Shown one piece after another: positions 2,090 through 57,823 of a DNA stretch of 64,000 nt. The stretch's first letter is position 1, and each line of letters opens with the position of its first letter. A program made the position numbers and the translations under genes. The DNA is from Candidatus Nomurabacteria bacterium (GTDB lineage Bacteria > Patescibacteriota > Minisyncoccia > Phycocordibacterales > UBA9973), in NCBI GenBank assembly GCA_052035405.1, contig JBPOHQ010000008.1:32893-96892 (forward strand), read 5' to 3'. The notes beneath the pieces were generated by a model. That model was not told the origin of the DNA and searched no databases. It saw nothing but the letters and a program-made list of their open reading frames with translations.

Positions 2090-3952
2090 TTATCTAGCAA
2101 TAACTGTATTTGTTCCCGAAACTTCAGACTCTTCTAAGTCAGCTTTTGCCTTTTTAATGGACAGTATTTGAGAAGGATCTGAAGTTATAATTTGGTCTTC
2201 TGTGTAAGAAGAGACTATCTTAATAGCTACGTGTTTTAGTCCCGCAAAGAATATACCCTCACCTACTCCAGACTCCAAAAGGAGATATTTTTCTTCATCA
2301 GTGAGGTTAAAGGTTGATTGGAGTATTTCTATGGTACTTGGAGACTGTTTTAAGAGAAGTTGGATTGAAGAGTTGGTAACAATTGGTATTCCATAAGGAG
2401 ATTTCATGAAGTCAGCTGCGTCTTGAGTGATAGTAGCAAGACCTAAGTAATATTTTCTTCCTCTTTTTGCTAAAGAATACAAGAAAGAAGCAGTATCTTC
2501 TGATTTCATCATCCACCACGCCTCATCCACTACAAGAAGTCTCTTCTTTAAGTTTTTACGAATAGTATTCCAGATGTAGTGGGTAACGATATACATAGCA
2601 ATAGGCTTCAACTCGTCTTCCATATCTCGTACAGAGAAAACAACGAATTTTTTGTTGATATCTACATTACTTGGTTTATTGATAAATGTAGACCAAGAAC
2701 CTTTCGTGTATTTTACCAATCTTTGGACCACAGACTCACTTCCCTCCATTCCAGAAAGAACCATTTCAAAGTCTGACAAAAGCGGTGGCTCTATATTAGA
2801 AAAATCAGAATCAGGGGTGATGTCTTTTATGGCATATGTTTCAGATATTGCTCGGTCTACGATAGAATCTTCTTCTGGAGTAAGTCCACCCAACATGAGT
2901 CTGAAGAGACCTACGAGGTTTATAATATTACTTCTCAGCACATCCTCTGTGGTTTCATCTTCTCTTGGAATTGGTAAATCAAAAGGATTGATATGATGAT
3001 CAGAAGAAAGTGAGATATTGAAATATCTTCCACCTACTGTCTCAGCAAGGTACTCATATTCCCTTTCAGGGTCAATCACAATAACATCAATATCAAACAT
3101 GAGCGAACGAAGTATCTCGAGTTTTGTTGCGTAACTTTTTCCAGAACCAGATTTTGCAAAAGTGACAGAATTGTAGTTCTCAAGAGAGAATCTATCAAAT
3201 ACTACCAAACTGGAATTGTGTCTATTAATACCATACAATATTCCTTTATCTGAAGTTAGGTCAAAAGAAACAAAAGGAAAAATACTTGAAAGCGGCTCAG
3301 AATTTAACTTCTGATGTATGCTGATTAAATCGGTTCCAGTAGGAATAACACTTTTAAAACCTTCTTCTTGTTGAAAAAGTGCTGGTTTAATATATATTAA
3401 CTTTGACTCAAGAATGGATTTAATTTCATTCTCTACTTTAAAGAGCTCTAAGTCATTATCTGCATAGACAGTGATATAGACCCCAACATCAAAAAGCTTT
3501 TCTTGTGCTTGAATAAGACTATCACGAAGACCTTCGAGATCTTGATAGGCAGTATCGAGCATCGGGTCACGAACAACCCCTTTTGATTCTCTAATTCCGA
3601 TCTGGCTTTGTACTTCAGCAACTTTTTTCTGGAATTGTCGTAATGCAAGAGAGGTGTCTATCGGATGGATAAATATTGAAACATCAAAAACCTTATCGAG
3701 GTTAATAATAGGAGAAAACCAGTTATCTATAAGAAAACGAGGATAAGAAATTATAAAAAAAGTACGAGCAATTTTGTCCCCCAAGTCTAGGGACTTAGGG
3801 GCAATTTTTAAAGCAGATGGTGCGATAATATCTTGCAGTTCGAGGTTTGCAGATTCATATATTTCTTCAGGCATCACTGACAAAATAGAAGCACCCGCTT
3901 CTGTTTTTTTACCTTCTTCTTTTTTACCTAACAATTTATCGAGAATTCCCAT
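2090..3952 (-). CDS. VirB4/TrbE/ConE-family type IV secretion ATPase
   Basis: Walker A FAKSGSGKSYATK, DPEREYEYL, Walker-B-like LLVVDEAWWMM (DEAW motif typical of VirB4), IYSLAKRGRKYYLGLATITQ. Confidence 0.8.
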   Translation of the reverse strand: MGILDKLLGKKEEGKKTEAGASILSVMPEEIYESANLELQDIIAPSALKIAPKSLDLGDKIARTFFIISYPRFLIDNWFSPIINLDKVFDVSIFIHPIDTSLALRQFQKKVAEVQSQIGIRESKGVVRDPMLDTAYQDLEGLRDSLIQAQEKLFDVGVYITVYADNDLELFKVENEIKSILESKLIYIKPALFQQEEGFKSVIPTGTDLISIHQKLNSEPLSSIFPFVSFDLTSDKGILYGINRHNSSLVVFDRFSLENYNSVTFAKSGSGKSYATKLEILRSLMFDIDVIVIDPEREYEYLAETVGGRYFNISLSSDHHINPFDLPIPREDETTEDVLRSNIINLVGLFRLMLGGLTPEEDSIVDRAISETYAIKDITPDSDFSNIEPPLLSDFEMVLSGMEGSESVVQRLVKYTKGSWSTFINKPSNVDINKKFVVFSVRDMEDELKPIAMYIVTHYIWNTIRKNLKKRLLVVDEAWWMMKSEDTASFLYSLAKRGRKYYLGLATITQDAADFMKSPYGIPIVTNSSIQLLLKQSPSTIEILQSTFNLTDEEKYLLLESGVGEGIFFAGLKHVAIKIVSSYTEDQIITSDPSQILSIKKAKADLEESEVSGTNTVIAR

Positions 3953-4036
3953 GAATTATATTCTAGGTTCCATACTTAAAACACAAACAATATAAATTAT
4001 AATATATTTACAGAATATAACCTAGGCACTAATTAC

Positions 4037-4684
4037 CTAGCTTTGCTTTTCAAGCTCTATCTTACCCTCCAACTCTCCTGGGTTAAAAACTTTATAGAAT
4101 ACTTCTATGACTTCTTCTGTTCCTAGTTGTGCTGATTTTATACCGCAACGAGAAAGTCCTTGCTGAATTACACTTACGCGTTGTTCTAATTGAGAACGCT
4201 TTTCTTCAAAATCAAGCTCTGCTTCCAGTTTTAATTTCTTTTTGTCTTTTTTACCAAAGAACTTATCAAATAAATCAGACTCCGGTTTCAAGCTTGTTTG
4301 AGAATATGGGACTACAATAAAAAAACTTTTTGTCATAATACTTACTGTTTCTGTGAAATTCCTTATAAATTCTATATATTCTTTTGTTTGAAGTTTAAGG
4401 AGTGGCTCAGTTTGTAACTTCATTCTGTTTTCTAAAAGTAAAAGATATGGTCGTATGTCTAGCTTTCTAGATTGTATTGATATTTGTACAGCAAAGTCTA
4501 GGGTGTTTATAAAACTTTGGAATTGTAAAATTGTGGCTCGCTGTTCATCAGCAGATTTTAATGAAAGATTTATAGAATTAGCTAGTATAATCGCACGAAG
4601 TCCACCATCTTTAAGGACAACAACACCATCACGGACTTCCTTGATTGGTACAAACTCTTGAGTTGCTTTTGCATGTATTGCCAT
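4037..4684 (-). CDS. Hypothetical protein immediately upstream of virB4; possibly a separately encoded VirB4 N-terminal-domain-like module
   Basis: ORF track; EVRDGVVVLKDGGLRAIILANSINLSLKSADEQRATILQFQSFINTLDFAVQISIQSRKLD resembles the kdG..l..a.....g.d.e..s.ee pattern of VirB4 N-terminal domains (inference); no TM segment. Confidence 0.4.
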   Translation of the reverse strand: MAIHAKATQEFVPIKEVRDGVVVLKDGGLRAIILANSINLSLKSADEQRATILQFQSFINTLDFAVQISIQSRKLDIRPYLLLLENRMKLQTEPLLKLQTKEYIEFIRNFTETVSIMTKSFFIVVPYSQTSLKPESDLFDKFFGKKDKKKLKLEAELDFEEKRSQLEQRVSVIQQGLSRCGIKSAQLGTEEVIEVFYKVFNPGELEGKIELEKQS

Positions 4685-4687
4685 GTT

Positions 4688-5107
4688 TTAATTTTGTGTT
4701 TCTTTTTGAAGATCTAAAACGTCTAAACTCCAGGCTAAGTCTCGAAGTTTTCCACCGTTTAGTCTCGGGTTGTGAATTTCTTGGGTGCTTGTTTCTGCTT
4801 GTATTGATTGCTGTTTTTTAACTTTTTTAACTTTTCTTTTCCATATAAAAAGTTTATCTTGTAGGGCATATTTAATTCCTGCTTCAAGCATAAAAACAAA
4901 GGGCTTACTGTTTGGTTTATAGAAAGTAAGTGCTAGTGAAAAAGCTGCAACGGCAAGCATGGGAATGATTCCAAAGATTAAACCAAGAAGTCTATATAGT
5001 ACAAAACAAATTCCAGCTCCACCAGCTAAATAAACAAACTCACTAAAGGTGAATGGTCCAAATATTTTATCTTCAATATCTAAAAATTGTGGAACTTTAA
5101 ATTGCAT
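4688..5107 (-). CDS. VirB3/PrgI/ConD-like small two-TM membrane protein
   Basis: 139 aa; two hydrophobic helices (FVYLAGGAGICFVLYRLLGLIFGIIPMLAVAAFSLALTFY); position directly upstream of the virB4-region genes matches Gram-positive T4SS gene order. Confidence 0.5.
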   Translation of the reverse strand: MQFKVPQFLDIEDKIFGPFTFSEFVYLAGGAGICFVLYRLLGLIFGIIPMLAVAAFSLALTFYKPNSKPFVFMLEAGIKYALQDKLFIWKRKVKKVKKQQSIQAETSTQEIHNPRLNGGKLRDLAWSLDVLDLQKETQN

Positions 5108-8837: not shown

Positions 8838-11243
8838 TTATCTTTTGTTGAAATAATATTCGTACGGATTTTTTGTCTTGAACGGTGAATTTATTCTTCG
8901 GGCATCGATAACTTTATTCTTGTAGTACTCGTATACGGTTAATTTATTTCCAGAGAGCCACAATTGATACGCAGATACATCAGGACGACTTACACGAATC
9001 TCTCTTAGGTCCGGACCTACGTATCCAAATGCTTTACCGAATACGTGTGCAAGGTCCCATGCGAATTGTTGCAAGTTGTCCCCCTCGGTGTAGCCATATT
9101 TTCTTTGGAATATTGGACTCTTTTTAATTCTTCTTGCGAAGACAGTCTCTACTCCTTCGTGATATCTGACAATATCATCATTGTCTGGTTCAAGAGTTTG
9201 TCCAATGATTGGTAAGTGTGGGCCAACAGGACCAACTGGTGTTGTATCTTGCCCATCCGGTATTCCATCATTATCATCATCAGTGTCTAAGTTGTTAGGT
9301 ATTCCATCTCCATCTGCATCATCATCGTCTACATTTGGTATACCGTCACCATCAAGATCTGTGTCTAAGGTGTTTGGCGTACCTCCTCCATCATAGTCTG
9401 TTGGAGTCCCAATTCCAGTAGGACTTCCGTCTAATAAATCAGGTATTCCATCATTGTCATCATCAGTATCAGTAGTATTAGGAATTCCATCTCCGTCAGT
9501 ATCATTGTCTAGGATGTTAGGAATTCCATCCCCGTCCATATCGGAATCTAGGATATTCGGTATTCCTCCACCGTCATAGTCAAAGGGTGTTCCTGTTGCC
9601 GTAGGACTACCATCAAGGAGATCCGGTATTCCATCATTGTCATCATCAGTATCAGTAGTATTAGGAATTCCATCTCCGTCAGTATCATTGTCTAGGATGT
9701 TAGGAATTCCATCCCCGTCTATATCAGAGTCAACAGTATTTAAAAAGCCATCCCCGTCAAAATCTGTAGGGTTCCCTCCATTAGTATTTCCGTCGCCATT
9801 TGGATTTGTTCCGTTTCCATTTCCATTTCCACTATCACTTCCTGTGCCATCATCTCCAACTCCATCGTCTCCAGGATTTCCATCGTCTCCGTTTCCTGTA
9901 TCGGTATACCCACCTGTTTCATTTGGTCCGTTTCCATTATTGTTTCCGCCAGTATTGTTACCACCAGTATTTCCTCCTCCTGGGTCATTTGGTCCACCTG
10001 GATCTATTGCTGGATCATTTCCATAATCAATGTTGTTTCCATTACCGTCGTTTCCTACACCGTTGCCAGGATTATATGGAGTTCCGATATAATCAACAGC
10101 ATCAGTCAGTCTAGTTTTAAAATCCAAAGTAGCACCATAAAATGTTTGTGTTGGACTACTACTGCCTGTTGTGTTTATTGTTTCAGCTACTGCACGGACA
10201 TTGTAAGGAGTGTTTTTTGTTAAACCAGAAAGCTTAAAGCTCATGGTTCCATAACTTTTTGTTTCATGAGTCACTTCTCCAACTTTAATCCAATTTAACT
10301 CGCTCTCTTTTTTATATTCAAAAAATGTTTTTACTTTTCTACTGGAACCATAAGAACCCTTTAAAAAAGCAGATTTTGAAGTTATTTCTGAAGGAAAATA
10401 AGTTATCACAGAAGTATGAGGACAAGATTGACATGGGTCTGTGTGAAAAGTAACGACGCCACCATACTTTATTTCAGTTGGTTTGCGTGCATCATTTGAA
10501 ACAACAGCACAGTATGAATACAGTGTGTCTGGTTCTAAGTTCGTTACATTAGCAAAAAAATTTCCTCCACCAGAAACTTTTCCATAAGCATCTGGTACTG
10601 TTGAAATTATTCCTATCATCTGAGAACCAAATATTTCATTGCAGAAAATAGGTGGTTTGTCTACTCTAGACAATCTAAAGTATCCATAGGCCAAGGATCC
10701 AGTACCACCGACTGAACCCTTTAGTACAACATCAGTATCAGTAAGACCTGTTACTGTGTGGGTTGTTACACCGCTTATTTGATTTCCACTACCGCTACCA
10801 GTGCTTCCTCCACCAGAAGGTGGAGTGACAAGAGTTTTAAAGTTTTTTACACTACCATAATATACTTCACTTCCACCAAAATAAAGTTGATTTTGGTCTG
10901 TTGTTGCTACCGCACAGTAATAATAAGTTGTATCTTGTTGTAAGTTACCTATTTGCTGATTAAGAGTATTTAGTGTTCCTGTTGTTGATGTGTTAAAAGT
11001 AATTGTAGAACTAGAGTAAAAGTTTGTCATATTATAACAACTAGTACTAGCTACTGTTGTATATCTGAAATTAGCATATACAGGAAAATTGTTATAGTTT
11101 GTGACTGTTCCAGAAAGTGTAGCCTGTGTGTCAGTTATGTTTGATGCTGAGTTGGTGTTTACTATCATATACCCAAAAGTTATTGCTGGTACAAGCAATA
11201 ACAGTAGCATGAGTATTTTTTTGTATATTTTTTTACCGTACAC
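8838..11243 (-). CDS. Large secreted or surface repeat protein with thrombospondin-type-3-like calcium-binding repeats (DTDGDGIPN / DDDNDGIPD)
   Basis: N-terminal anchor MYGKKIYKKILMLLLLLVPAITFG; a Gly/Asn-rich tract; repeated D-x-D-x-D-G-IP motifs; near-identical internal duplication. Confidence 0.6.
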   Translation of the reverse strand: MYGKKIYKKILMLLLLLVPAITFGYMIVNTNSASNITDTQATLSGTVTNYNNFPVYANFRYTTVASTSCYNMTNFYSSSTITFNTSTTGTLNTLNQQIGNLQQDTTYYYCAVATTDQNQLYFGGSEVYYGSVKNFKTLVTPPSGGGSTGSGSGNQISGVTTHTVTGLTDTDVVLKGSVGGTGSLAYGYFRLSRVDKPPIFCNEIFGSQMIGIISTVPDAYGKVSGGGNFFANVTNLEPDTLYSYCAVVSNDARKPTEIKYGGVVTFHTDPCQSCPHTSVITYFPSEITSKSAFLKGSYGSSRKVKTFFEYKKESELNWIKVGEVTHETKSYGTMSFKLSGLTKNTPYNVRAVAETINTTGSSSPTQTFYGATLDFKTRLTDAVDYIGTPYNPGNGVGNDGNGNNIDYGNDPAIDPGGPNDPGGGNTGGNNTGGNNNGNGPNETGGYTDTGNGDDGNPGDDGVGDDGTGSDSGNGNGNGTNPNGDGNTNGGNPTDFDGDGFLNTVDSDIDGDGIPNILDNDTDGDGIPNTTDTDDDNDGIPDLLDGSPTATGTPFDYDGGGIPNILDSDMDGDGIPNILDNDTDGDGIPNTTDTDDDNDGIPDLLDGSPTGIGTPTDYDGGGTPNTLDTDLDGDGIPNVDDDDADGDGIPNNLDTDDDNDGIPDGQDTTPVGPVGPHLPIIGQTLEPDNDDIVRYHEGVETVFARRIKKSPIFQRKYGYTEGDNLQQFAWDLAHVFGKAFGYVGPDLREIRVSRPDVSAYQLWLSGNKLTVYEYYKNKVIDARRINSPFKTKNPYEYYFNKR
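9421..9780. repeat. Tandem direct DNA repeat of about 180 bp (two copies, roughly 100 bp near-identical) encoding the DNDTDGDGIPNTTDTDDDNDGIPDLLDGSPT block
   Basis: 9421-9536 and 9601-9716 are almost identical by eye (ggaattccatctccgtcagtatcattgtctaggatgttaggaattccatccccgtc...). Confidence 0.7.
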
Positions 11244-23018: not shown

Positions 23019-23099
23019 GTGATAAAGATACTATATCCTTAATGCAGTTTATTTGCAAGTAAAAGTTTGTTCAACTTTGATTATTTATGTGGATAAACA

Positions 23100-23660
23100 A
23101 AAGTGACAAGTGTTTTAGTCTCTGGTAGGATGTGCTTATAGTATTGGTTTTTTGATAATTAAAACTTGGCTAGGGCAAAAGAAATAGTGTTTAATATAGT
23201 TATTGAGTACTATTTCTTTTGTCTTGCCATGACAAAGAAAGTATCCAGATGGGTTGTGTCCCATTTTCTGTTTCCGCCTGGAGACAAAAATTAACCCAAT
23301 GACAGGGTTAGTCTGGTGCTTTCTTTTAAGAAAGATATTTGTTTTGGGGTTCCCCCAGGTAAGCGTGTGACGCCCTATCGTCACACAAACTGCCTGGGGT
23401 TTCCAGAACTAAAAAGAATGTTAGATAAGTAAGCACTCAGGGGGAGCCTGGTACAAAGGTTCTGGGTTCCCTTTTTGCTTCATCTGACAAGAGGTAAGAT
23501 TAGCGGTTCTTCCAGCTCTGCTGAAAAGTGGTGGCTGGATTTGTTGAAAAATCCTCTCCATTTTGGAGAGTAAAGATACGAGACAGAAGAAAAGATCCAA
23601 ATAAAATGTGTTGTGCGACTTGGTAGCAATTATCAAGTCGCATTTTTATTTATTTAATTA
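23100..23660 (+). ncRNA. Candidate structured non-coding RNA of unknown class, ending at an intrinsic terminator
   Basis: About 550 nt with no credible ORF; multiple nested helices (ccccagg...cctgggg, gtgtgacg..cgtcacac, ctttctt..aagaaag); terminator gcgactt-N13-aagtcgc followed by a T-run at 23615-23652. Confidence 0.25.
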
Positions 23661-23681
23661 ATTGAATTGTGGATAACTATT

Positions 23682-23708
23682 TTGCATACTTTTTTAAAGT
23701 GGTATAAT
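23682..23708 (+). promoter_or_regulatory. Sigma70-like promoter (TTGCAT-N15-TGgTATAAT, extended -10) driving the multi-hairpin RNA
   Basis: ttgcat at 23682-23687; tggtataat at 23700-23708. Confidence 0.5.
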
Positions 23709-23714
23709 TAATAC

Positions 23715-24090
23715 AGAGATAAAAAAGTTGTTCGACAAACAAGAAGAGAGAGATGTAGGAAATAGTATTTAATTCTTTGAATACTGCTTCCTATATCTAC
23801 CCCTTCTATGATATAGAAAAAAATGCATCTAACGATGCAAACTATCGCCACCACGTGGCAACCAAAAAACTGTTACAATTGTAACAATTTAATTTAATCG
23901 CTAATTATATTAGCAAACCGTTTCCCGCTCTTTCGAGCAAAAAAATTGTTGATTATTATCAACACCTGTTCTTTCTAAAAATAGCTAACATCTGTTAGCA
24001 AAACTCATATAGTCACTTCGGTGACAACATCTATCGCATATTTTATATGCACTACAACCCAGCAAAAAATCGCTGGGTTTTTTGTTTGTA
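23715..24090 (+). ncRNA. Candidate novel non-coding RNA of about 375 nt made of about 12 different short hairpins (12-26 nt palindromes) at roughly 27-nt spacing, bounded by a promoter and a terminator
   Basis: No ORF; palindromes at 23764, 23791, 23824, 23847, 23871, 23900, 23927, 23948, 23984, 24012, 24036 and 24058, including a perfect 16-mer tgttacaattgtaaca and a UUCG-loop hairpin gtcacttcggtgac. Confidence 0.4.
24058..24086 (+). terminator. Rho-independent terminator (cccagc-N8-gctggg followed by TTTTTT)
   Basis: Hairpin plus T-run read directly. Confidence 0.75.
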
Positions 24091-24100
24091 TTTTTAAATT

Positions 24101-24129
24101 TTGCTAAAAAACCAATAACAAGCTATAAT
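24101..24129 (+). promoter_or_regulatory. Consensus sigma70-like promoter TTGCTA-N17-TATAAT upstream of tRNA-Pro
   Basis: ttgcta at 24101-24106; tataat at 24124-24129. Confidence 0.55.
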
Positions 24130-24154
24130 CATAGAGTTTTCAGTAAGAAGTATT

Positions 24155-24364: not shown

Positions 24365-25273
24365 CTACTTGCTGTTTAATTCATTAACTCTTTTATTGTA
24401 AATATTTATAAAAGCATCAAGTGTTTCCGTTTTAAATGCTAATATTTTTAGCATTACTGGGTCACCTTGTTTTATTTTATCAGCCAAGAGAAGAGATTCT
24501 CTTTGATCTTGAAGCGAAGTTATAAAAGAATAAAATATACTCAATTCTGTTTTTGTTATTGTATTTTCTTCGGCAGGATTATTTTCAGCTAGTTTTTTAT
24601 ATTGTTTATCTGAAAGGTCAAAGTAAAACACAGGCATGTTTTTTAAGGGTGTTAAAATCATTTCTTTATTCTTTATCTTGATTCCATATTTTAAGTCTGC
24701 ACCTCCACTCTCAACAATGGCAAGAGTTTTATCAGCTTTTTTAATTGTAAGAGGCAACGCTCCTTCTGATAGTTCTCTATTGTCTTCAAGTAGACTATCA
24801 AGAGCACAAATTGTTTTACCTGTTTTTTTATTTACAATAATAAAGTCTGTGCCAGCCTCGTAGTCATCATAGCTTGCAGTACGCATAACCAGAAAGTCAT
24901 CGCCCAGCACTTTATTTAAAAGTATAGTTACCATAATTTCTGTTTGAGTACCATTCCTCCTCATCTTATCTTCTCGCCATCTGTTTAAGCAACGATCTTG
25001 TGAAGTAGGATCTTCCGAGTGACATTTTGCAAAACTTAATTCCCTTTTTCTTATAGTTGCTTTATCTTTCTCAATTTCTTCTTTTGAATAAATTCCACCA
25101 TTATCTAGCATAAAGGCATCCATTGAAACGGACCCATCTGTTTTTATTAAATTTTGCTTTCCGTACTCTTCCTCTATTCTTTTATTATTTTCGTTAGAAA
25201 TAAACGAAAGCCTTTTTCGTAGCTTTACACTTAGGTGCTCTAAGGCACTTTGTTCAGGTTTAAATTCTCCCAT
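24365..25273 (-). CDS. Hypothetical protein (302 aa)
   Basis: ORF track only; no motif recognised. Confidence 0.45.
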   Translation of the reverse strand: MGEFKPEQSALEHLSVKLRKRLSFISNENNKRIEEEYGKQNLIKTDGSVSMDAFMLDNGGIYSKEEIEKDKATIRKRELSFAKCHSEDPTSQDRCLNRWREDKMRRNGTQTEIMVTILLNKVLGDDFLVMRTASYDDYEAGTDFIIVNKKTGKTICALDSLLEDNRELSEGALPLTIKKADKTLAIVESGGADLKYGIKIKNKEMILTPLKNMPVFYFDLSDKQYKKLAENNPAEENTITKTELSIFYSFITSLQDQRESLLLADKIKQGDPVMLKILAFKTETLDAFINIYNKRVNELNSK

Positions 25274-25292
25274 TTATGTATTATACCTTATA

Positions 25293-25766
25293 TCATAAAA
25301 CAATATCAGAAATTACATTTATTTTTGCTTTTTTATGAGCTAGATCTAGATAAACCACCAGTAGATCCACTTGCCACCCCGTATCTTCTGAGATTCTATT
25401 GGACATAAGGTATGTCTGGATTGTCCGTGATAGACGCTTCAGTTTCCAAGGGTGCATGTTATCTTCAGGCCGATAATCATCCTTCTCGAACGTTTCATGT
25501 GGAACATTCTTTCCTTCTGTTTCATGAGAAACATTAGTTTTTGATGTTTCACGTGGCACAAATGAAGGTAATGTTACGCGTGAAACGCTTTTTACCTCAA
25601 TAAAATAGAGTTTTCCTTGTTTTTCAGCTATTATATCTATTTCACCCCATTTTTTAGTGTAGTTACGATCAATTACTGAGTAACCGTGTTTCACAAGAAA
25701 ATTAACGGCGATATTCTCGCCAATTTCTCCTGTTTTCTGGGTTTTTGAAGTAAAAACCTTTGGCAT
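25293..25766 (-). CDS. yraN: YraN/UPF0102-family endonuclease-like protein carrying an in-frame repeat insertion
   Basis: GEIGENIAVNFLVKHGYSVIDRNY..GEIDIIAEKQGKLYFIEVKS and a C-terminal GWQVDLLVV block fit UPF0102; an inserted segment VTLPSFVPRETSKTNVSHETEGKNVPHETFEKDDY is encoded by the palindrome array. Confidence 0.65.
   Translation of the reverse strand: MPKVFTSKTQKTGEIGENIAVNFLVKHGYSVIDRNYTKKWGEIDIIAEKQGKLYFIEVKSVSRVTLPSFVPRETSKTNVSHETEGKNVPHETFEKDDYRPEDNMHPWKLKRLSRTIQTYLMSNRISEDTGWQVDLLVVYLDLAHKKAKINVISDIVL
25491..25585. repeat. Array of four 14-bp palindromic elements at exact 27-bp spacing inside yraN (gtttcatgtggaac, gtttcatgagaaac, gtttcacgtggcac, gttacgcgtgaaac)
   Basis: Copies start at 25491, 25518, 25545 and 25572; the 27-bp period keeps the reading frame (9 codons). 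Confidence 0.8.
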
Positions 25767-25842
25767 GTATTAATTATACAAACAAAACGATAAAAATGTT
25801 ATATGTGTAACAAATCACAACTACGTTTTATAAATAATTAGT

Positions 25843-25856
25843 GTTTCATGTGGAAC
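25843..25856. repeat. Solo intergenic copy of the 14-bp palindromic element (gtttcatgtggaac, identical to the 25491 copy)
   Basis: Exact 14/14 match to the copy at 25491. Confidence 0.6.
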
Positions 25857-26039
25857 AAGAAGTTGGAAATGACAATTAGAGCCAATTCTATATTTTATAA
25901 GGGTTTTTTAGGTTACTTTGGTCTAAAAGACAAGATTTTTATGTCCGTTATGCACAATACCAACATAGTTATCCACAGTCTGTTAGTAAGTCCTTATTTT
26001 TTAATAACCACAAATATCAGTCATCAGAGACAAAATTTG

Positions 26040-26111
26040 TGCACCCGGAGGGATTCGAACCCCCAACGACGGTTCCGAAGACCGGCGTGATATCCATTTC
26101 ACTACGGGTGC
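26040..26111 (-). tRNA. tRNA-Arg (anticodon UCG, tentative); CCA not encoded
   Basis: Minus-strand cloverleaf: acceptor gcacccg/cgggtgc, D-arm gtga-aatggata-tcac, anticodon loop cttcgga with one C:U mismatch at the base of the anticodon stem, T-arm ggggg-ttcgaat-ccctc. Confidence 0.65.
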
Positions 26112-26132
26112 ATGGAATTAATCAACTTACAA

Positions 26133-26161
26133 AGTATAGCTTATTATGGTTTTTTAATCAA
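26133..26161 (-). promoter_or_regulatory. Sigma70-like promoter (TTGATT-N17-TATACT on the minus strand) upstream of tRNA-Arg
   Basis: Reverse complement of 26133-26161 reads ttgatt-aaaaaaccataataagc-tatact. Confidence 0.4.
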
Positions 26162-26224
26162 AAATATTTAGTGATGAAAGCTGAAACGCTATAATATTCA
26201 TATTTAATATGCTAAAAAAGAAAA

Positions 26225-26253
26225 TTGCAAATCGATAAGCAAAGTAATATAAT
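26225..26253 (+). promoter_or_regulatory. Consensus sigma70-like promoter TTGCAA-N17-TATAAT upstream of tRNA-Gly(GCC) and cca
   Basis: ttgcaa at 26225-26230; tataat at 26248-26253. Confidence 0.55.
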
Positions 26254-26289
26254 GATTTAGTTCTTTTATTTTTTATTATACATAACTAA

Positions 26290-26360
26290 GCGGTTATGGT
26301 TTAGTGGTAGAACACGTCCTTGCCAAGGATGAGACGGGAGTTCGATTCTCCCTAGCCGCA
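26290..26360 (+). tRNA. tRNA-Gly (anticodon GCC); CCA not encoded
   Basis: gcggtta...cacgtccttgccaaggatg... close to the canonical tRNA-Gly(GCC) anticodon arm; T-loop ttcgatt. Confidence 0.85.
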
Positions 26361-26371
26361 CAAATTCCAAG

Positions 26372-27964
26372 GTGGAACAAAATACTAAAAATTTAAAAAC
26401 AAAGATACCTAAAGAGGTTTCACATGTAACAAAAAACCTAGAAGAAGCTGGTTTTGATGTTTTTCTTGTTGGAGGGTGCGTAAGAGATATTTTAATGAAT
26501 AAAGAGCCTAAAGATTGGGATCTGACTACCAACGCTACTCCAGAACAGATTATTCCATTGTTCGACAAGACTGTGTACGAGAATAACTTCGGAACGGTAG
26601 CTGTTTGCGTGCCACGTGAAACAAAAAATACCTTTGTTCCGCATGAAACAGGAGTTTTTGATGTTTCACGTGGCACAAATGGTTCAACTAATAAAAATGT
26701 TACACATGTAACAGAAGAAAGTGTTCCACATGAAACGCTAGAATATGAGATAATTGAGGTTACTCCATATAGAACCGAGACAAAATACAGTGATTTTAGA
26801 CATCCCGATGAAGTAAAATTCAGCGATAAACTAGAAGATGATCTAAAAAGACGTGATTTTACAGTAAATGCTATGGTTATGGACTCTCAGGGTCATGTGC
26901 AGGATCTGTATAATGGTTTAACGGACATAAAGGACAAAATTTTAAGGACAGTAGGAGAGCCAGACGAGAGATTTAACGAAGATGCACTTAGAATGTTAAG
27001 AGCTGTTCGTTTTGCTTGCCAGCTTGGATTTTCTATTTCACATGAAACATCTGAAAGCATGTTTCGAAATGCCGATTTAATAAAAAAGATATCCACAGAG
27101 AGGATTCGTGATGAATTTTCAAAGATAATCATGTCACCGACTCCGGCCGCTGGAGTGGTTATGTTACAAAAATTTGGATTATTAAAACATGTTATTCCTG
27201 AGTTAGAGGAGGGTATAGGATGTGTTCAAGGTGGTGCACATATATACGATGTGTGGGAACATTTGTTAATGGCTCTCCAGCACGCTGCAGATAAAAATTG
27301 GCCATTTGAAATTCGTTTTGCCGCACTTATGCATGACATAGGTAAACCGAGAACTCGAAGACCTGGAGAAAAGAAAGCCTATACTTTCTACGGACATGAA
27401 GTCGTGGGTGCACGAATGGCGAAGAAAATAATGGAGAGATTAAAATATTCTAGAAAAGAAACAGAACTAGTGGAGATTTTTGTCCGAACTCACATGTTTT
27501 TCTCTGATACAGAGAAAATAACTCTCTCTGCTGTACGGAGAATTATTGCGAAAGTTGGAAAAGAAAATATTTGGTTACTTATGAATATTCGTGAGTGTGA
27601 CCGAGTCGGCATGAAAAAAACAGAAGCACCGTATAGATTACGTAAATACTTTGCCATGATAGAAGAAGCTCTTCGTGATCCTATTTCTGTGAAACAGCTT
27701 AAAATTGACGGAAGTTACATGATTAACATGTTACACATGAAACCTGGACCCCGCATGGGCTGGATGTTAAACGCTTTACTTGAAGAAGTTCTAGAAGATC
27801 CGACAAAGAATGAAATTGAGTATTTAAAAAATAAAATTCTAGAATTAGAAAAACTTGAGGATAAAGATTTACGAGAACTTGGCGAGAAAGGGAAAGAAGC
27901 AAAAGAAGAATTAGAAGAAGAAGAAATAGAAAAATTACATGCTAAGCATGGGGTAAAAAAATAA
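26372..27964 (+). CDS. cca: CCA-adding tRNA nucleotidyltransferase (polymerase-beta head plus HD domain) with in-frame palindromic-repeat insertions; GTG start 12 nt after tRNA-Gly
   Basis: FLVGGCVRDILMNKEPKDWDLTT, RRDFTVNAM, HD motif LMHDIGKP; an atypical inserted segment VCVPRETKNTFVPHETGVFDVSRGTNGSTNKNVTHVTEESVPHETLEYE. Confidence 0.85.
   Translation: MEQNTKNLKTKIPKEVSHVTKNLEEAGFDVFLVGGCVRDILMNKEPKDWDLTTNATPEQIIPLFDKTVYENNFGTVAVCVPRETKNTFVPHETGVFDVSRGTNGSTNKNVTHVTEESVPHETLEYEIIEVTPYRTETKYSDFRHPDEVKFSDKLEDDLKRRDFTVNAMVMDSQGHVQDLYNGLTDIKDKILRTVGEPDERFNEDALRMLRAVRFACQLGFSISHETSESMFRNADLIKKISTERIRDEFSKIIMSPTPAAGVVMLQKFGLLKHVIPELEEGIGCVQGGAHIYDVWEHLLMALQHAADKNWPFEIRFAALMHDIGKPRTRRPGEKKAYTFYGHEVVGARMAKKIMERLKYSRKETELVEIFVRTHMFFSDTEKITLSAVRRIIAKVGKENIWLLMNIRECDRVGMKKTEAPYRLRKYFAMIEEALRDPISVKQLKIDGSYMINMLHMKPGPRMGWMLNALLEEVLEDPTKNEIEYLKNKILELEKLEDKDLRELGEKGKEAKEELEEEEIEKLHAKHGVKK
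26417..26430. repeat. Single copy of the 14-bp palindromic element (gtttcacatgtaac) near the 5' end of cca
   Basis: Encodes VSHVT in the cca frame. Confidence 0.55.
26609..26736. repeat. Array of five 14-bp palindromic elements inside cca (starts 26609, 26636, 26663, 26699, 26723; spacings 27, 27, 36, 24, all multiples of 3)
   Basis: gtgccacgtgaaac, gttccgcatgaaac, gtttcacgtggcac, gttacacatgtaac, gttccacatgaaac. Confidence 0.8.
27714..27743. repeat. Degenerate copy plus intact copy of the palindromic element (gttacatgattaac ... gttacacatgaaac) near the 3' end of cca
   Basis: Read directly; encodes MINMLHMKPG. Confidence 0.5.
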
Positions 27965-30375: not shown

Positions 30376-31311
30376 TTATCTCTTACTATGATATTTTTTA
30401 TGAGTCTCTAAAAGTTTTTTGTCGGTGACGTGAGTGTATATCTGCGTAGTAGAAATACTTGAGTGTCCAAGCATCATCTGTACAGAACGTAAGTCTGCAC
30501 CGTTACCGAGCAAGTCCGTTGCAAACATATGACGCATAACGTGAGGAGTAACCTTTTTAGATATTCCAGCCTTAGTCGCATGTTGTTTAACAATCCTTTC
30601 TATTGATCTTTTCCCTAGACCTTTCATATCCATATTTTTCTTTGAAATATTTTTTTTATCAATATCGTTCCCAACTTGTACAAATAACGCTTCGGACATG
30701 TCTTTACGTAATGCTAAATATTTCTTTACTGCTTCTTTGGCTGTATCAGAAATAAATACTACGCGAACTTTACCACCTTTACCTCGCACAGATAATTCGT
30801 CTGTAGTTAAATCGATATCAGCCGTTAAGGAACAAAGTTCTGAAACACGTAATCCGGTGGAGAATAGAAGCTCTAGAATGGCCTTATCTCTCACATCTTT
30901 TATGTCCGAACCTTTTGGGGAATCTAAAAGTCTGTTTAATTCTGTTTCAGTAATGAGGTCAAGTTGACGTTCTCCAACTTTTGCGAGCTCTATTTTCTCT
31001 GCGGACATTGTCCTTATCTCTTGACGTGTGAGATATTTAAGGAATGCACGTAACGCTATCAGGTAATAATTTTGAGTTTTTTTAGAAAGAGTTTCTCCTT
31101 TATCTTTATGGTGACCTGTACTTTGTCTATTGAGCCATAGTCTAAATTCACGGACCATGGTGTCATTTATTTTTTCTGGATCATCATTTTTTGTGTAGTC
31201 TAAAAATCTACTGAGATAATGGTCATAATTCTCGACTGTTTTGAGCGATCTACCTTTTTCTATCTCTACGTATTCTAGAAATTGAGTCTTTAGTTTTTTA
31301 AGGGATGCCAT
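30376..31311 (-). CDS. xerD: Tyrosine site-specific recombinase XerC/XerD family
   Basis: R..GLRVSEL, HVMRHMFATDLL, LGHSSISTTQIYTHV catalytic motifs. Confidence 0.85.
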   Translation of the reverse strand: MASLKKLKTQFLEYVEIEKGRSLKTVENYDHYLSRFLDYTKNDDPEKINDTMVREFRLWLNRQSTGHHKDKGETLSKKTQNYYLIALRAFLKYLTRQEIRTMSAEKIELAKVGERQLDLITETELNRLLDSPKGSDIKDVRDKAILELLFSTGLRVSELCSLTADIDLTTDELSVRGKGGKVRVVFISDTAKEAVKKYLALRKDMSEALFVQVGNDIDKKNISKKNMDMKGLGKRSIERIVKQHATKAGISKKVTPHVMRHMFATDLLGNGADLRSVQMMLGHSSISTTQIYTHVTDKKLLETHKKYHSKR

Positions 31312-38140: not shown

Positions 38141-38476
38141 CGTGTACCAGTTAACTAGTTATTCAAAAATAACCATCTGTTTAACAACATCTTATGTTAC
38201 ACAGGGATGTTAATCATGAATTGATTACCTATAAATGGGGGCATCAAAAAAGTTTTGTGTTACGTGTTTCACAAGAATTAAAAGACATATAAATAAAAAA
38301 GAACCGCTTTGCAACATGATGTGCTGGCAGTTCTTAAGGTTTTCACTTTTGAAGATGTTGTACAATAATAAGAATGTTTATTACTATAAATACCACTGTC
38401 CCATAAAAATTAAGTCCCGTTTTTCCATTTGTGTTATGGAGGGTACGGTGGGCGGGTGGGAAGAAGCATAAGATTT

Positions 38477-41049: not shown

Positions 41050-42102
41050 ATGTCTGCAGTTACTGGGTTAAAATCTAATTTAATAAATTTGTCGAACAAG
41101 CGTCCTCTTTCAGGCACTAAAGAATCTCTGAAATTTATTGATTTTTGTGCTGGGATTGGTGCTGGACGTATCGGCTTGGAAAAAAATGGACTAACTTGTG
41201 TTGGATTTTCTGAAATAGACAAACAAGCTGAATTAACTTATAGAAAGCTTTTTGGTGATGAGGAAATAAATTACGGAGATTTGATGAAAATAGACGCAAA
41301 CAAGTTGCCTGATTTTGATATGATGATTGCCGGCTTTCCTTGTCAAAGTTTTTCCGTTATTGGTCAAAGAAAGGGTATGCAAGATGAACGTGGGCAGATT
41401 ATTTATGGCCTTACTAAGATAATGCGTTCAAAAAATCTCAAATACTTTATCTTAGAAAATGTGAAGGGGCTTACTAATCATGAAAAAGGTAATTCACTCA
41501 AGATTATTTTAAACGAATTAGACAGGGTTGGGTATAAAGTTTTCCATAAAGTGTTGAATAGCATTGACTACGGTGTACCGCAAATGCGTGAGAGAATTTA
41601 CCTTGTTGGTATTAGAAAGGATTTAGTGCCTAAAAATTTTGAATTTAATTTTCCAGAACCTCAATCAAAAGTAGACGTAAAACATTACTTAATTGATCCA
41701 AGGGAGTCTGAATTTAAAGAAAATAAAGTTGTTTATGCAACATTTTTAAGATATCTAAAAAATAAGTACAACAATAATCAGTATTCCGTTAAGAGTTTTC
41801 TTAAACAAGAATATGTAATATTGGACACAAGGCAGTCTGATTTAAGGATTTATCATAATAGAGTGCCTACTCTCAGGACAGGTAGACATGGTATTTTATA
41901 TGTAAGAGATGGAAAATTTAGAAAACTATCCGGAGTTGAGTCTTTGTTGTTGCAAGGTTTTCCTAAAGATCTTATTAAGAGAGTAGATGGATATATCAAT
42001 GAAAATTATCTGCTGAAGCAGGCTGGGAATGCTATGACTGTTAACACTATTGAAGCTATTTCTAGAGAGTTGTTTAAGACATTGAAAAAATATGAACAAT
42101 AA
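41050..42102 (+). CDS. DNA (cytosine-5)-methyltransferase
   Basis: Motif I DFCAGIGAG, motif IV GFPCQSFS, ENVKGL, QAGNAM; layout resembles M.MspI/HpaII-type enzymes (specificity not assigned). Confidence 0.9.
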   Translation: MSAVTGLKSNLINLSNKRPLSGTKESLKFIDFCAGIGAGRIGLEKNGLTCVGFSEIDKQAELTYRKLFGDEEINYGDLMKIDANKLPDFDMMIAGFPCQSFSVIGQRKGMQDERGQIIYGLTKIMRSKNLKYFILENVKGLTNHEKGNSLKIILNELDRVGYKVFHKVLNSIDYGVPQMRERIYLVGIRKDLVPKNFEFNFPEPQSKVDVKHYLIDPRESEFKENKVVYATFLRYLKNKYNNNQYSVKSFLKQEYVILDTRQSDLRIYHNRVPTLRTGRHGILYVRDGKFRKLSGVESLLLQGFPKDLIKRVDGYINENYLLKQAGNAMTVNTIEAISRELFKTLKKYEQ

Positions 42103-42871
42103 AAAGAAAAACCAGAAAGAAATGGTGGCTCTTGGCTCAAAAACCGCAAAGGGCGGGTTTGCAAACGAGCAGGACGTTATTAATCGATTTAATAATTGGA
42201 AGACCGATATGATTGCTCAAGAATGGTTAGCAGAAATGAATTACAAAATAGACGATATTGAGTTTGTGCAAGCTTCAAAAGTGAAAGGTCAATATAAAGC
42301 CGATATTCAGGTTAGGATAACTATATTAATAAAACAACAATCTCAAGAGGATGTGCAGAATTTACAGGTGAAGCTCGTGAGTAATCCGCAAGGATTTAAT
42401 CAAATAGATAAAAGATGGGTTGATAAATATGTGGAACTTTGGAATATCCCCGCTGACGTATCAAGGATACTTAAGCTTTTTACTGGTGAAATAGCTTCCT
42501 CAAAAAGCGGTTTAAGAGATCCGCGAAGAATGTTTTTAGATGAAATGAGTGTGTCTGACCAAGATAAACTTATAAAATTTATAGAGGGAAACAAGATCTT
42601 GATTATTTCAGATTTATTAAAAGGTAGAGGGGAATTTTCTGCAGATTGGACATTGGTTATTTTAAAAGTTACAGGAGATGATGCTTGGGTTTTAAGATCA
42701 GTAAATCACGTTATGAATGTTTTTGGTTCAGGTGAAGTCCTAATTACTCGTAAGGGTAGTTTGAATATTGGTAATATTACCATGCAAAGAAAAGGGGGAG
42801 ATGGAGGTCGCAAAACAGCTCAAATGCTTCAATTTAAAATAAATCCTGTCTTGTTATTTGATAGTAAATAA
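42092..42871 (+). CDS. Putative type II restriction endonuclease partner of the m5C methyltransferase (MspI-like?)
   Basis: Start overlaps the MTase stop by 11 nt; C-terminal RKGGDGGRKTAQMLQFK loosely resembles the MspI C-terminus; identity tentative. Confidence 0.45.
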   Translation: MNNKKKNQKEMVALGSKTAKGGFANEQDVINRFNNWKTDMIAQEWLAEMNYKIDDIEFVQASKVKGQYKADIQVRITILIKQQSQEDVQNLQVKLVSNPQGFNQIDKRWVDKYVELWNIPADVSRILKLFTGEIASSKSGLRDPRRMFLDEMSVSDQDKLIKFIEGNKILIISDLLKGRGEFSADWTLVILKVTGDDAWVLRSVNHVMNVFGSGEVLITRKGSLNIGNITMQRKGGDGGRKTAQMLQFKINPVLLFDSK

Positions 42872-55100: not shown

Positions 55101-55993
55101 CTACTGTTGCAAATACTATAAACAACTCTGCATGGATGCAAGAATGGCAATGGAATACACTTGGATCTGGAACAGGACTTAAACTTTCTTCTGCATCAAC
55201 AGCCGCACCTGGAGCCACACAAAGACTTTTTGAAATATCAGTTACAGGTACAGGCTCAGGAGGAAGTACTTCAACTGCATCACATGTAACAAACAGTAAG
55301 ACAAACAGTGGAGGCACAAATGTTGCAGGTTACTTCTCTGCATCAGGTGCTACTACCGCTAACTACGCTTTATATGTTGGAGCTGGAGTTATAGGAAATT
55401 TAAATGGAACTGCTGCAGCACCTAGCTATACATTTAGCGGTAGTGCAACTACCGGTATGTGGTCTTCAGCTGTAAACACACTAAACTTCGCAACAGCTGG
55501 TACAAACAGACTAACTATTGATTCTACTGGAGGGGTTACTGCTACAGGTCTTGCAGGTACTGGAGAAAGAAGAGTCTGTGTAGACAGTACGGGTAAATTT
55601 AAAGTATGTGCTTCGGAAATTAATAAGATTATATCTTTTGCACTTAAATATAATGGTGGTACAAGCTTTACCGCAGAGAACACTTCAGTCTTATGGACTG
55701 ATGATCCTACAGATGTCAGTGAAAACGTACTAGTTGTAAGTGCTACAAATCCTAGTACAGGACGTTATTTACTAAATGTCACTTTTGATGGATGGAGCAT
55801 GGATTCTGACGAGATGGTTTCTGCGACGTATGTAGCTCAATCAAACGGTCTACACAAAATGTCTTTGAAAGATGAGGATGGTAATAATAACTTAGAATTT
55901 CAAATATCAAATGACAACGTGCCATCAAATATGGATGTTGGAGATGAATTGTACTTTATTATGCAATGGCCTACTGTTGGTATAAATAACTAG
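52184..55993 (+). CDS. Giant (1269 aa) surface or fibre-like protein with a collagen-like Gly-X-Y tract and Thr/Ser/Gly-rich repeats
   Basis: N-terminal hydrophobic anchor; [45 protein letters not shown]; recurring [17 protein letters not shown] / [17 protein letters not shown] blocks. Confidence 0.6.
53123..53262 (+). repeat. Collagen-like (G-X-Y)n coding tract within the giant protein
   Basis: About 46 consecutive Gly-X-Y triplets. Confidence 0.8.
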
Positions 55994-56074: not shown

Positions 56075-57820
56075 ATGCAAATTAATGAAGATCAACTCAA
56101 AAGATTTATTTTAGATGCTGGGCTGATTAAACGAGCAGATCTTGATGCTATTGAGAAAAAAGCAATAGAACAAAAACAAAAACTAGGGGACATGCTTCTA
56201 ACTGAAGGAAAAATATCTGAAGTTGATCTAAAGAGAATGGAAGCGTTTGTTTTAGGTATTCCTTTCATAAACCTTATAAATGAAAAAATAGAATTAGACA
56301 TATTGTCTTTGATCCCAGAACCCCTTGCACACAAATACAATATTATTGCCTACAAAAAATCTGATAAGGGGTTAGAGGTTGCGATGCTTGATGTTGATGA
56401 TTTACCAGTTATTGATTTTATTAAAAAGAAGTCTGGTTATAAAATATTACCAAGACTTACCGATACTGCATCTATCAAAAGTGCATTGTTGCAGTATAAA
56501 AAAAGTCTTCAGGCGGAATTTGATACTATTATTCAAAAAGAAGTTGGACCACTTTCGGTTGCAAAAGAAGAAGGTGAAAAATCAGAAGCAGAACTTAAAG
56601 AGATGGCTGAAGACTTGCCTGTCGTAAAAATAGTTGATTCACTCATCTTTCACGGAATTTTACAGGGAGCATCTGATATACATATCGAGCCAGGAGAAAA
56701 TGATTTAACAGTACGATATAGAATAGACGGTATTTTGCATGATGCAATGATACTTGATAAAAATGCTGGTAGTGGTATTACTGCTCGTATTAAAGTGTTG
56801 TCTAATCTAAAACTTGACGAAAAAAGATTACCTCAAGACGGTAGATTTAAGATTGAGCAAAATGGAGACAAGGTGTCTTTTCGTGTCTCAACACTTCCAA
56901 CATTTTTTGGAGAGAAAACTGTTATCAGAATCTTGCGTGAAAATGCACATGGTTTTTCTCTTGAGGGATTAGGTTTTCATGGTGAAGGACTAGAAAGAAT
57001 TTATGAATCATTGAAACAAAAAACAGGTATGGTGCTCGCGACCGGTCCGACTGGTTCTGGAAAGACTACGACTCTCTATACTATGCTGGATATTTTGAAT
57101 AAACCAGAAGTAAATATATCTACAGTAGAAGACCCTATTGAGTATCAGATGCCTAGAGTTAACCAAACTCAAGTTAAATCAGAGATAGGTTTATCTTTTG
57201 CCAACGGGCTTCGCTCACTTCTTCGTCAAGATCCTGATATTGTGATGGTGGGGGAGATTCGAGATGGAGAGACAGCAAGTATTGCGGTCAACGCTTCTCT
57301 TACTGGTCACTTGGTGCTTTCTACTATACACACAAACTCCGCAGCTGGAGCCATCCCAAGACTTGTAGATATGGGAGTATTACCTTTTCTTATTGTTTCT
57401 ACAGTGAAGACTATTATTGCTCAGCGTCTAGTAAGAAGACTTACTCCTAGTAAGGAAAAATATTTCTTGTCAGAGGCAGAACTAGAAAGTTTAAGTAAAA
57501 TTGTTGATTTAGATAGAATGTTGGTATTCCTTAAAAAAGAAAAGATTGTTGGCGAGAAAGATGACTGGAAAACAATTCCTTTCTATAAGGCTGTAAAAAG
57601 TGCTGATTCTGAATCTGGTTATGCGAGTCGTGTTGGAATTCATGAAGTTCTAAAAGTAAGCAACACTATCCGCGAGATGATTATCAAAGGTGCTTCTCAA
57701 GATGAAATAGAAAAACAAGCAAAAGAAGAGGGAATGATGACAATGATAGAAGATGGTGTTTTTCAGGCCGTGTTAGGACTTACTACGATAGAAGAAGTAT
57801 TTCGTGTTGTCTCTGAGTAA
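56075..57820 (+). CDS. pilB: Type IV pilus assembly ATPase PilB (GspE family)
   Basis: GspE N-terminal domain; Walker A ATGPTGSGKTTTLY; Asp box; His box VLSTIHTNSAAGAIPRL. Confidence 0.9.
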   Translation: MQINEDQLKRFILDAGLIKRADLDAIEKKAIEQKQKLGDMLLTEGKISEVDLKRMEAFVLGIPFINLINEKIELDILSLIPEPLAHKYNIIAYKKSDKGLEVAMLDVDDLPVIDFIKKKSGYKILPRLTDTASIKSALLQYKKSLQAEFDTIIQKEVGPLSVAKEEGEKSEAELKEMAEDLPVVKIVDSLIFHGILQGASDIHIEPGENDLTVRYRIDGILHDAMILDKNAGSGITARIKVLSNLKLDEKRLPQDGRFKIEQNGDKVSFRVSTLPTFFGEKTVIRILRENAHGFSLEGLGFHGEGLERIYESLKQKTGMVLATGPTGSGKTTTLYTMLDILNKPEVNISTVEDPIEYQMPRVNQTQVKSEIGLSFANGLRSLLRQDPDIVMVGEIRDGETASIAVNASLTGHLVLSTIHTNSAAGAIPRLVDMGVLPFLIVSTVKTIIAQRLVRRLTPSKEKYFLSEAELESLSKIVDLDRMLVFLKKEKIVGEKDDWKTIPFYKAVKSADSESGYASRVGIHEVLKVSNTIREMIIKGASQDEIEKQAKEEGMMTMIEDGVFQAVLGLTTIEEVFRVVSE

Positions 57821-57823
57821 TAT

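Follow-up and report, generated by a model that had tools for sequence, protein, structure and literature searches.

The intergenic palindrome at position 25843 is, judging from sequence, very probably a parS site, and the principal, intergenic one in a conserved cluster of such sites close to the putative origin of a Nomurabacteria/Paceibacterota (Patescibacteria) chromosome. We assign this reading a probability of about 0.85. The window, by which we mean the whole 64-kb stretch of DNA that was analysed, contains three exact copies of the 14-mer GTTTCATGTGGAAC, at 25492-25505, 25843-25856 and, on the minus strand, 26723-26736. An earlier note on this sequence had described the second copy as non-coding and identical at 14 of 14 positions to a copy inside yraN. 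Both statements are exact, with the yraN copy starting at 25492 rather than 25491, 351 bp away, and the gene is indeed yraN (Pfam UPF0102/YraN, E 1e-16). The 25843 copy occupies the spacer between the start of yraN (25766) and a tRNA-Arg gene (26039-26111, minus strand). The sole open reading frame over it (25848-26090) is without support and overlaps the tRNA-Arg gene.

A parS site, the centromere of a bacterial chromosome, is a palindrome of 16 bp onto which the partition protein ParB is loaded. Conserved chromosomal parS sites are mainly TGTTNCACGTGAAACA (PMC7022226), and those of P. aeruginosa are TGTTCCACGTGGAACA (PMC4368675). For the scans we used TGTTNCACGTGNAACA, our own symmetric relaxation of the published consensus, which also covers the P. 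aeruginosa sites. The flagged 16-mer differs from TGTTNCACGTGNAACA at one position and from the strict consensus TGTTTCACGTGAAACA at two. We count it among sites of the TGTTNCACGTGAAACA type because of the single mismatch to TGTTNCACGTGNAACA and because its spacer orthologues in relatives are canonical. In P. aeruginosa, ChIP-seq peaks of ParB are enriched in six heptamers, and both half-sites of the flagged 16-mer are among them (PMC5961200). Scanning with TGTTNCACGTGNAACA found no perfect parS in the window; the best sites carry one mismatch, and the flagged site is among the four best. The earlier note had offered, as a fallback, that the CACGTG core could be a protein-binding site; this appears essentially right, the motif corresponding to the parS consensus.

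The sites are concentrated in a single locus. The earlier note had proposed counting the motif against shuffled sequence, and the count bears out an excess: 12 sites lie within two mismatches of GTTTCATGTGGAAC in the 64-kb window against 0.65 expected, none of 100 shuffles reaches 12, and all twelve are confined to 25492-27743. When TGTTNCACGTGNAACA is used with up to two mismatches, 14 of the 15 hits in the window fall in 25491-27744. Half-sites follow the same pattern, with 18 of 55 located within 2.4 kb (25.4-27.8 kb) where 2.06 are expected (P = 8e-13; four heptamers, first-order Markov model). Outside the cluster the number of half-sites is at chance level (37 observed, 37.0 expected). 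The distant partial copies to which the earlier note had drawn attention do exist, CACATGTAAC at 55281-55290 and GTTACGTG/GTTTCAC at 38259-38272, but they belong to this chance background. The cluster extends over ~1.3 kb, or 2.3 kb when two outlying sites in the CCA gene are included (Table 1). The first outlier (27034) is found at the same offset in the closest relative, L002, and in a few others, and the clade consensus at this position is not parS-like; the second (27729) is present in L002 at one mismatch and has no wider conservation. The lineage of the window has more degenerate sites than most relatives and zero perfect ones.

Table 1. Positions of the parS-like sites, their host genes and the adjoining DnaA boxes in the 64-kb window.
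Feature	Position	Strand	Remarks
yraN (UPF0102)	25293..25766	-	Pfam PF02021, E 1e-16; hosts one array
Array of four parS-like units	25491..25587	-	starts 25492, 25519, 25546, 25573; 27-bp spacing
29-nt stretch AGTTTTTGATGTTTCACGTGGCACAAATG	25536..25564		identical to 26653-26681
N-terminal yraN site, FLVKH	25687..25702	-	degenerate in the window: TTTTCTTGTGAAAC on the coding strand
Decayed companion site TGTTATATGTGTAACA	25797..25812		45 bp upstream of the primary site
Flagged primary site TGTTTCATGTGGAACA, parS-like 16-mer	25842..25857		intergenic; half-sites GTTTCAT and GTTCCAC
DnaA boxes TTATGCACA (1 mismatch) and TTATCCACA (perfect, 25969-25977)	25948..25977	+	oriC-like module adjoining parS
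CCA-adding enzyme (tRNA nucleotidyltransferase) gene	26372..27964	+	Pfam PolyA_pol, PolyA_pol_RNAbd, HD; hosts the other array
N-terminal CCA site GGTTTCACATGTAACA, VSHVT	26416..26431	+	codons 16-20; fixed in relatives as GTTTCACATGTAAC
Array of five parS-like units	26608..26737	+	starts 26609, 26636, 26663, 26699, 26723
Outlying lineage-specific site TATTTCACATGAAACA	27034..27049	+	CCA gene; peptide ISHET
Outlying lineage-specific site TGTTACACATGAAACC	27729..27744	+	CCA gene; peptide LHMK, other open frame

We compared the locus with 80 loci from Nomurabacteria/Paceibacterota MAGs, found via the CCA-adding enzyme at 62-90% protein identity. The gene order is kept: M23 peptidase, ZIP transporter, yraN on the minus strand, one or more tRNAs, the CCA gene on the plus strand, TMEM175, exonuclease and xerC. 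A perfect 14-mer core is present in 47 of the 80 loci, nearly always in the yraN-CCA spacer, which is the position of the flagged site. The spacer site of relatives is usually the full TGTTTCACGTGAAACA, and a degenerate second copy is common 16-27 bp upstream of their perfect parS. Counted at up to two mismatches to GTTTCACGTGAAAC, the locus (-1400 to +750 of the CCA start) contains 359 sites in 152 kb, or 2.36 per kb, as against 10 sites in 1,011 kb of ±10 kb flanks, or 0.0099 per kb, which is the chance level; the enrichment is ~240-fold. The sites are thus enriched above chance and held at a conserved position among relatives. By position and sequence, the flagged site is the predicted orthologue of their canonical spacer parS.

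Several features place the cluster near a putative replication origin. The cumulative GC skew of the window has its minimum at ~20-26 kb, and gene orientation diverges: up to ~21 kb the genes point leftward, and beyond ~31 kb most point rightward. In all 35 relatives whose loci extend 5 kb or more to either side, skew is higher in the right flank than in the left, and in 30 of them it goes from negative on the left to positive on the right. GC skew in part follows gene orientation. The spacer holds DnaA boxes downstream of parS: the distance from parS to the perfect box is 126 bp in the window and mostly 130-132 bp in ~50 relatives. Perfect TTATCCACA boxes hardly occur in relatives outside the 1 kb that precedes the CCA gene. 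The alignment of relatives reveals a conserved module comprising, in order, parS, ATGTCTTTTA, AATATC, CTTATTTTACAA, TAAAAGACA, ATGTCCTTTATAAACATTACCAACATAGTTATCCACAG, TAAAGGACA and the tRNA. Motif scans found no dnaA gene within ±10 kb in the 80 relatives, so that oriC is placed here from skew and boxes alone; the sign change of the skew, the divergence of gene orientation and the DnaA box all lie close to the flagged site.

Other elements were observed in the same region. A repeated motif, TGTCYTTTA / TAAARGACA, surrounds the two DnaA boxes of the oriC-like module between yraN and the first tRNA, with ~4 copies that face either way. Relatives conserve this motif well; in the window (25860-26038) it is degenerate in part. 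A gene for an XerC/D-type tyrosine recombinase (30376-31311, minus strand) is located within a few kb of the putative origin, a placement that the conserved gene order preserves in nearly all relatives. Between the ZIP transporter gene and a tRNA-Pro gene is a 1.1-kb non-coding stretch (23019-24154) with GC-rich, structured-looking segments, two perfect DnaA boxes (23088 and 23668) and, at 23871, the perfect 16-bp palindrome TGTTACAATTGTAACA. We considered this stretch as a part of the conserved module and rejected it, as Rfam gives no credible match to it and the loci of relatives contain nothing similar.

Six-frame motif scans (GERR, DHTTV, GxGKTHL) and Pfam searches of nearly all long ORFs, run with a relaxed E-value on orphan ORFs, found no ParB, ParA or DnaA gene in the 64-kb window, and the motif scans of the ±10 kb around the loci of the 80 relatives recovered no ParB or ParA either. 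ParB is assumed to be present in this lineage. Together with the location of sites near the yraN promoter and beside DnaA boxes, and the relaxation of motif position 7 in coding units, the lack of a ParB hit in the sequences scanned would fit an operator of another DNA-binding protein, such as a local regulator recognising the CACGTG palindrome or an origin-binding factor. Such an operator would hardly account for the perfect 16-bp identity to canonical parS seen across dozens of genomes, and multiple clustered sites at the origin are the typical arrangement of parS. We consider an operator of this kind improbable, although it is the strongest of the alternatives to parS.

The parS-like sites outside the spacer reside in the two flanking genes. 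In yraN, the four units of the array are read in frame as VSRVT, VPRET, VSHET and VPHET. The Pfam UPF0102 match gets as far as profile position 43 of 80 and breaks off right before the array, and the structure PDB 3fov aligns to yraN residues 11-78 only. In relatives the number of units inserted here ranges from 0 to 4 (0-4). The N-terminal site, which encodes FLVKH, has orthologues GTTTCTCGTGAAACA in 65 relatives with 77-100% identity by base, mostly 90-100%, four-fold degenerate positions included, the Leu codon CTC standing at 77%. Adjoining yraN is a 302-aa ORF (24365-25273, minus strand) for which Pfam gives no match up to E = 1 and which has a homologue in only one of the 80 relatives (L005, 50% identity).

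The CCA-adding enzyme is readily recognised by its similarity to PDB 6ibp (E 4e-50). Its five units are read in frame as VPRET, VPHET, VSRGT, VTHVT and VPHET. Residues 19-80 and 123-266 align to 6ibp residues 50-112 and 112-255, and residues 81-122 have no counterpart in the solved enzymes 6ibp and 7otr. As the aligned blocks adjoin at 6ibp residue 112, the segment 81-122 is a pure insertion, with the FGTV strand on one side and the E(I/V)TxxR motif on the other. Relatives have 1-5 units here, always in the same frame. The N-terminal site encoding VSHVT is conserved at 90-100% at most bases in 79 relatives, synonymous positions included, four-fold degenerate ones among them; the only lower positions are a C/T position (78%) and a flanking A (62%). 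Its codons GTT (100%), TCA (96-97%) and GTA (97%) far exceed their background frequencies of 34, 24 and 28%.

The arrays appear to change by local events. Spacers between units are unrelated, with the exception of one 29-nt stretch shared by the two arrays, and the common part is a core of 14-16 bp. Tandem Repeats Finder detects only the last two units of the arrays and misses the others because their spacers have diverged. In the CCA gene the 29-nt stretch is read in the sense direction, as GVFDVSRGTNG; in yraN it is read in antisense, as FVPRETSKT. In 65 genomes compared no other has an identity above 20 nt between these genes. This indicates a recent local duplication or gene conversion between the arrays as the probable source. 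The variation in unit number among relatives (1-5 in the CCA gene, 0-4 in yraN), at fixed loop positions, fits tandem expansion and contraction and insertion alike. The suggestion of the earlier note that the element is recombinogenic finds limited support in this variation and in the one 29-nt identity, both local; its companion idea of a mobile element with a wider genomic distribution is not supported, the copies being limited to one 2.3-kb locus and their density in relatives falling from 2.36 to 0.0099 per kb outside it.

A MITE-like or RPE-like mobile palindrome, inserting in frame into genes and into spacers and spreading through the genome, would account for identical 14-mers in three contexts, for in-frame insertions with variable copy number, for the 29-nt identity joining two genes, and for other GC-rich palindromes inserted within units in relatives. 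Against it, copies outside the locus are at chance in the window and in ~1 Mb of relatives' flanks, only the 14-16 bp core is common while spacers differ apart from the 29-nt stretch, and the sites are orthologous across genomes of 62-90% protein identity. Terminal repeats are absent, as are the target-site duplications that the earlier note had suggested looking for around the copies, and the core equals a known binding site. Dispersal at non-orthologous sites was not found, and we reject a miniature mobile element on distribution (37 half-sites against 37.0; 10 sites in 1,011 kb); it is somewhat less probable than an operator of another protein. An RNA element was also discarded, as Rfam gives only tRNAs in the window.

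Insertions of other sequences were observed at the same places in relatives. The GC-rich palindrome TTGTCCGCCAAAGCTTTGGCGTCGGCGGA (LSAKALASAE) splits a parS-like unit near its centre, in frame, in ~20 relatives. It is found in the CCA loop of L074 (~10261-10300), L067, L060, L015, L034 and L070 and in the yraN loop of L037, L022, L027 and L029. Nearly all copies within the ±10 kb loci are in the parS region, and none is present in the window. This palindrome could be a mini-element targeting parS, or an extension of the palindrome. The GC-rich hairpin insertions AAGGGGGAGATGCCGAAGGCAGAAGGGG (KGEMPKAEG) and CCCTCTCCTTATCAAGGAGAGGG (SPYQGEGE) occupy the same CCA and yraN loops: L021 (6072-6100), L030 (756-784), L043, L017 and L036 in the CCA loop and L064 (2906-2934) in the yraN loop. 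A few copies of CCCTCTCCTTATCAAGGAGAGGG also occur elsewhere in the flanks.

Codon usage separates constraint on the DNA from constraint on the peptide. In 58 V[SP]RET units, GTT (Val) accounts for 93% against 34% in the background, CGT (Arg) for 78% against 19%, AGR (Arg) for 0% against 50%, and ACA (Thr) for 74% against 43%. Loop units are always in the frame in which GTT is Val, and one of the other two frames contains TGA. The codon bias and the existence of perfect non-coding copies locate the constraint in the DNA and not in the peptide; the conservation of synonymous sites, like the codon usage, suggests that selection acts on the DNA. A share of the bias could come from recent common ancestry of duplicated units rather than from selection. 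A scan of third codon positions along the CCA gene was weakly discriminating, since AT-rich two-fold codons are high everywhere. In V[SP]RET units the Ser/Pro codon is unconstrained at its third base, which falls on position 7 of the 16-mer, and many coding units are therefore probably weak sites or half-sites. That selection acts on the peptide V-S/P-R/H-E-T in both proteins, with the DNA palindrome as a by-product, is scarcely credible and was rejected on the non-coding orthologue and codon usage: all loop coding units do share one frame and every relative has a recognisable form of the peptide, but the best, perfectly palindromic copies are non-coding, the units occur in two unrelated proteins, the FLVKH site is in a different frame, CGT is never replaced by AGR, GTT reaches 93%, synonymous sites are conserved, and the segment is absent from solved homologues.

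The analysis shows the sequence match to parS, the clustering and conservation of the sites, their position at the putative origin, their in-frame insertion and the constraint on the DNA; binding by ParB, and what would follow from it, we infer. Following the ParB-CTP clamp and ParA/SMC mechanism as outlined in PMC7053999 and PMC8494293, ParB dimers would nucleate on the full and half sites of the cluster, close as CTP-dependent clamps and then spread, and the spreading would mark the origin region for ParA-dependent segregation and for SMC loading. The cluster lies on both sides of the oriC-like DnaA-box module. The spacer between yraN and the tRNA has one or two sites, and yraN and the CCA gene each have a fixed site close to their 5' ends. 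The arrays, variable in number of units and with a step of mostly 27 bp (9 codons), would occupy a surface loop in YraN and, in the CCA-adding enzyme, a β-hairpin belonging to the head domain. As the genome is densely coding, extra sites may have accumulated inside permissive protein loops, where they would use the frame giving V-S/P-R/H-E-T. The arrays would grow, shrink and exchange sequence through local duplication or gene conversion.

A bolder proposal, to which we give somewhat less than even odds, is that the centromere of these very small genomes, dense in genes, is built largely inside proteins. The parS units would then act as an evolvable in-frame cassette, colonising permissive loops of the two oriC-flanking genes, lengthening and shortening by 9-codon steps, and copied between genes in either orientation; such copying would be feasible because the palindrome gives an acceptable peptide on both strands. 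If true, this would represent a distinct mode of centromere growth, with a DNA-level function shaping protein sequence.

The remainder of the window contains genes of other kinds. A C5 cytosine methyltransferase gene followed by a gene for an R.HinP1I-family endonuclease (41050-42871, plus strand) is likely a type II restriction-modification pair. A VirB4/TraG-like ATPase with a PrgI-family protein (2090-5107, minus strand) and a T2SSE/T2SSF pair of pilus ATPase and platform protein (56075-59041, plus strand) are typical Patescibacteria surface machinery.

Our literature search found no paper describing parS in Patescibacteria, and searches for parS/ParB in CPR, Saccharibacteria and Parcubacteria likewise returned nothing relevant. 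The predicted cluster would place the centromere, together with a likely oriC that is distant from dnaA, in an uncultured clade of Patescibacteria, and may aid origin-based growth estimates and genome finishing for Patescibacteria MAGs. It would account for the puzzling VSRET/VPHET repeats inserted into two conserved enzymes, as features of the DNA and not of the proteins, and offers a compact natural case of overlapping codes, in which an array of predicted ParB sites is translated in both orientations.

Among known systems, the cluster most resembles chromosomal parS/ParB (Spo0J): it has the same 16-bp palindrome, perfect in relatives, in several copies at the origin, and intragenic copies are usual in such systems. 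The B. subtilis site inside spo0J reportedly also reads VPRET. Unlike known chromosomal parS, the window has no perfect copy, its sites are packed into ~1.3 kb directly around DnaA boxes, and most belong to tandem in-frame arrays, with units mostly 27 bp apart and varying in number, inserted into loops of two housekeeping proteins. B. subtilis and C. glutamicum have 10 parS sites each and S. pneumoniae has 4 (PMC7022226), and nine of the ten sites of P. aeruginosa are within coding sequences (PMC4368675). The half-parS sites of P. aeruginosa ParB, GTTCCAC, GTTTCAC, GTTCCAT and GTTTCAT, number in the hundreds genome-wide (PMC5961200). The sites of the window are built from the same heptamers and many coding units keep only one good arm, but its half-sites are at chance level outside one locus.

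Plasmid centromeres consist of tandem repeats for proteins of the ParB family, such as F sopC with 12 repeats of 43 bp, and are non-coding with plasmid-specific sequences. They share with the cluster the tandem short palindromic binding sites and diverged spacers, whereas the array of the window is chromosomal, canonical in sequence and translated. Rickettsia palindromic elements (RPE) are selfish, genome-dispersed sequences of ~100-150 bp inserted in frame in protein genes, and to our knowledge have no binding function. As with RPE, palindromic DNA is tolerated here in frame in surface loops of conserved proteins; unlike RPE, the units of the window are mostly 27 bp apart, restricted to the origin locus and matched to a known protein-binding site. 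The Noc-binding site (NBS), TATTTCCCGGGAAATA, is a related palindrome bound by a ParB paralogue. It departs from parS at positions 2 and 7 in both arms, and position 7 helps to tell parS from NBS; the conserved intergenic copy has the parS bases (G2 and A7). In comparison with these systems, parS itself, its clustering at the origin and its frequent intragenic location are textbook features, and what is unusual is the packing around DnaA boxes, the tandem, in-frame, variable arrays in two housekeeping proteins and the exchange between the arrays.
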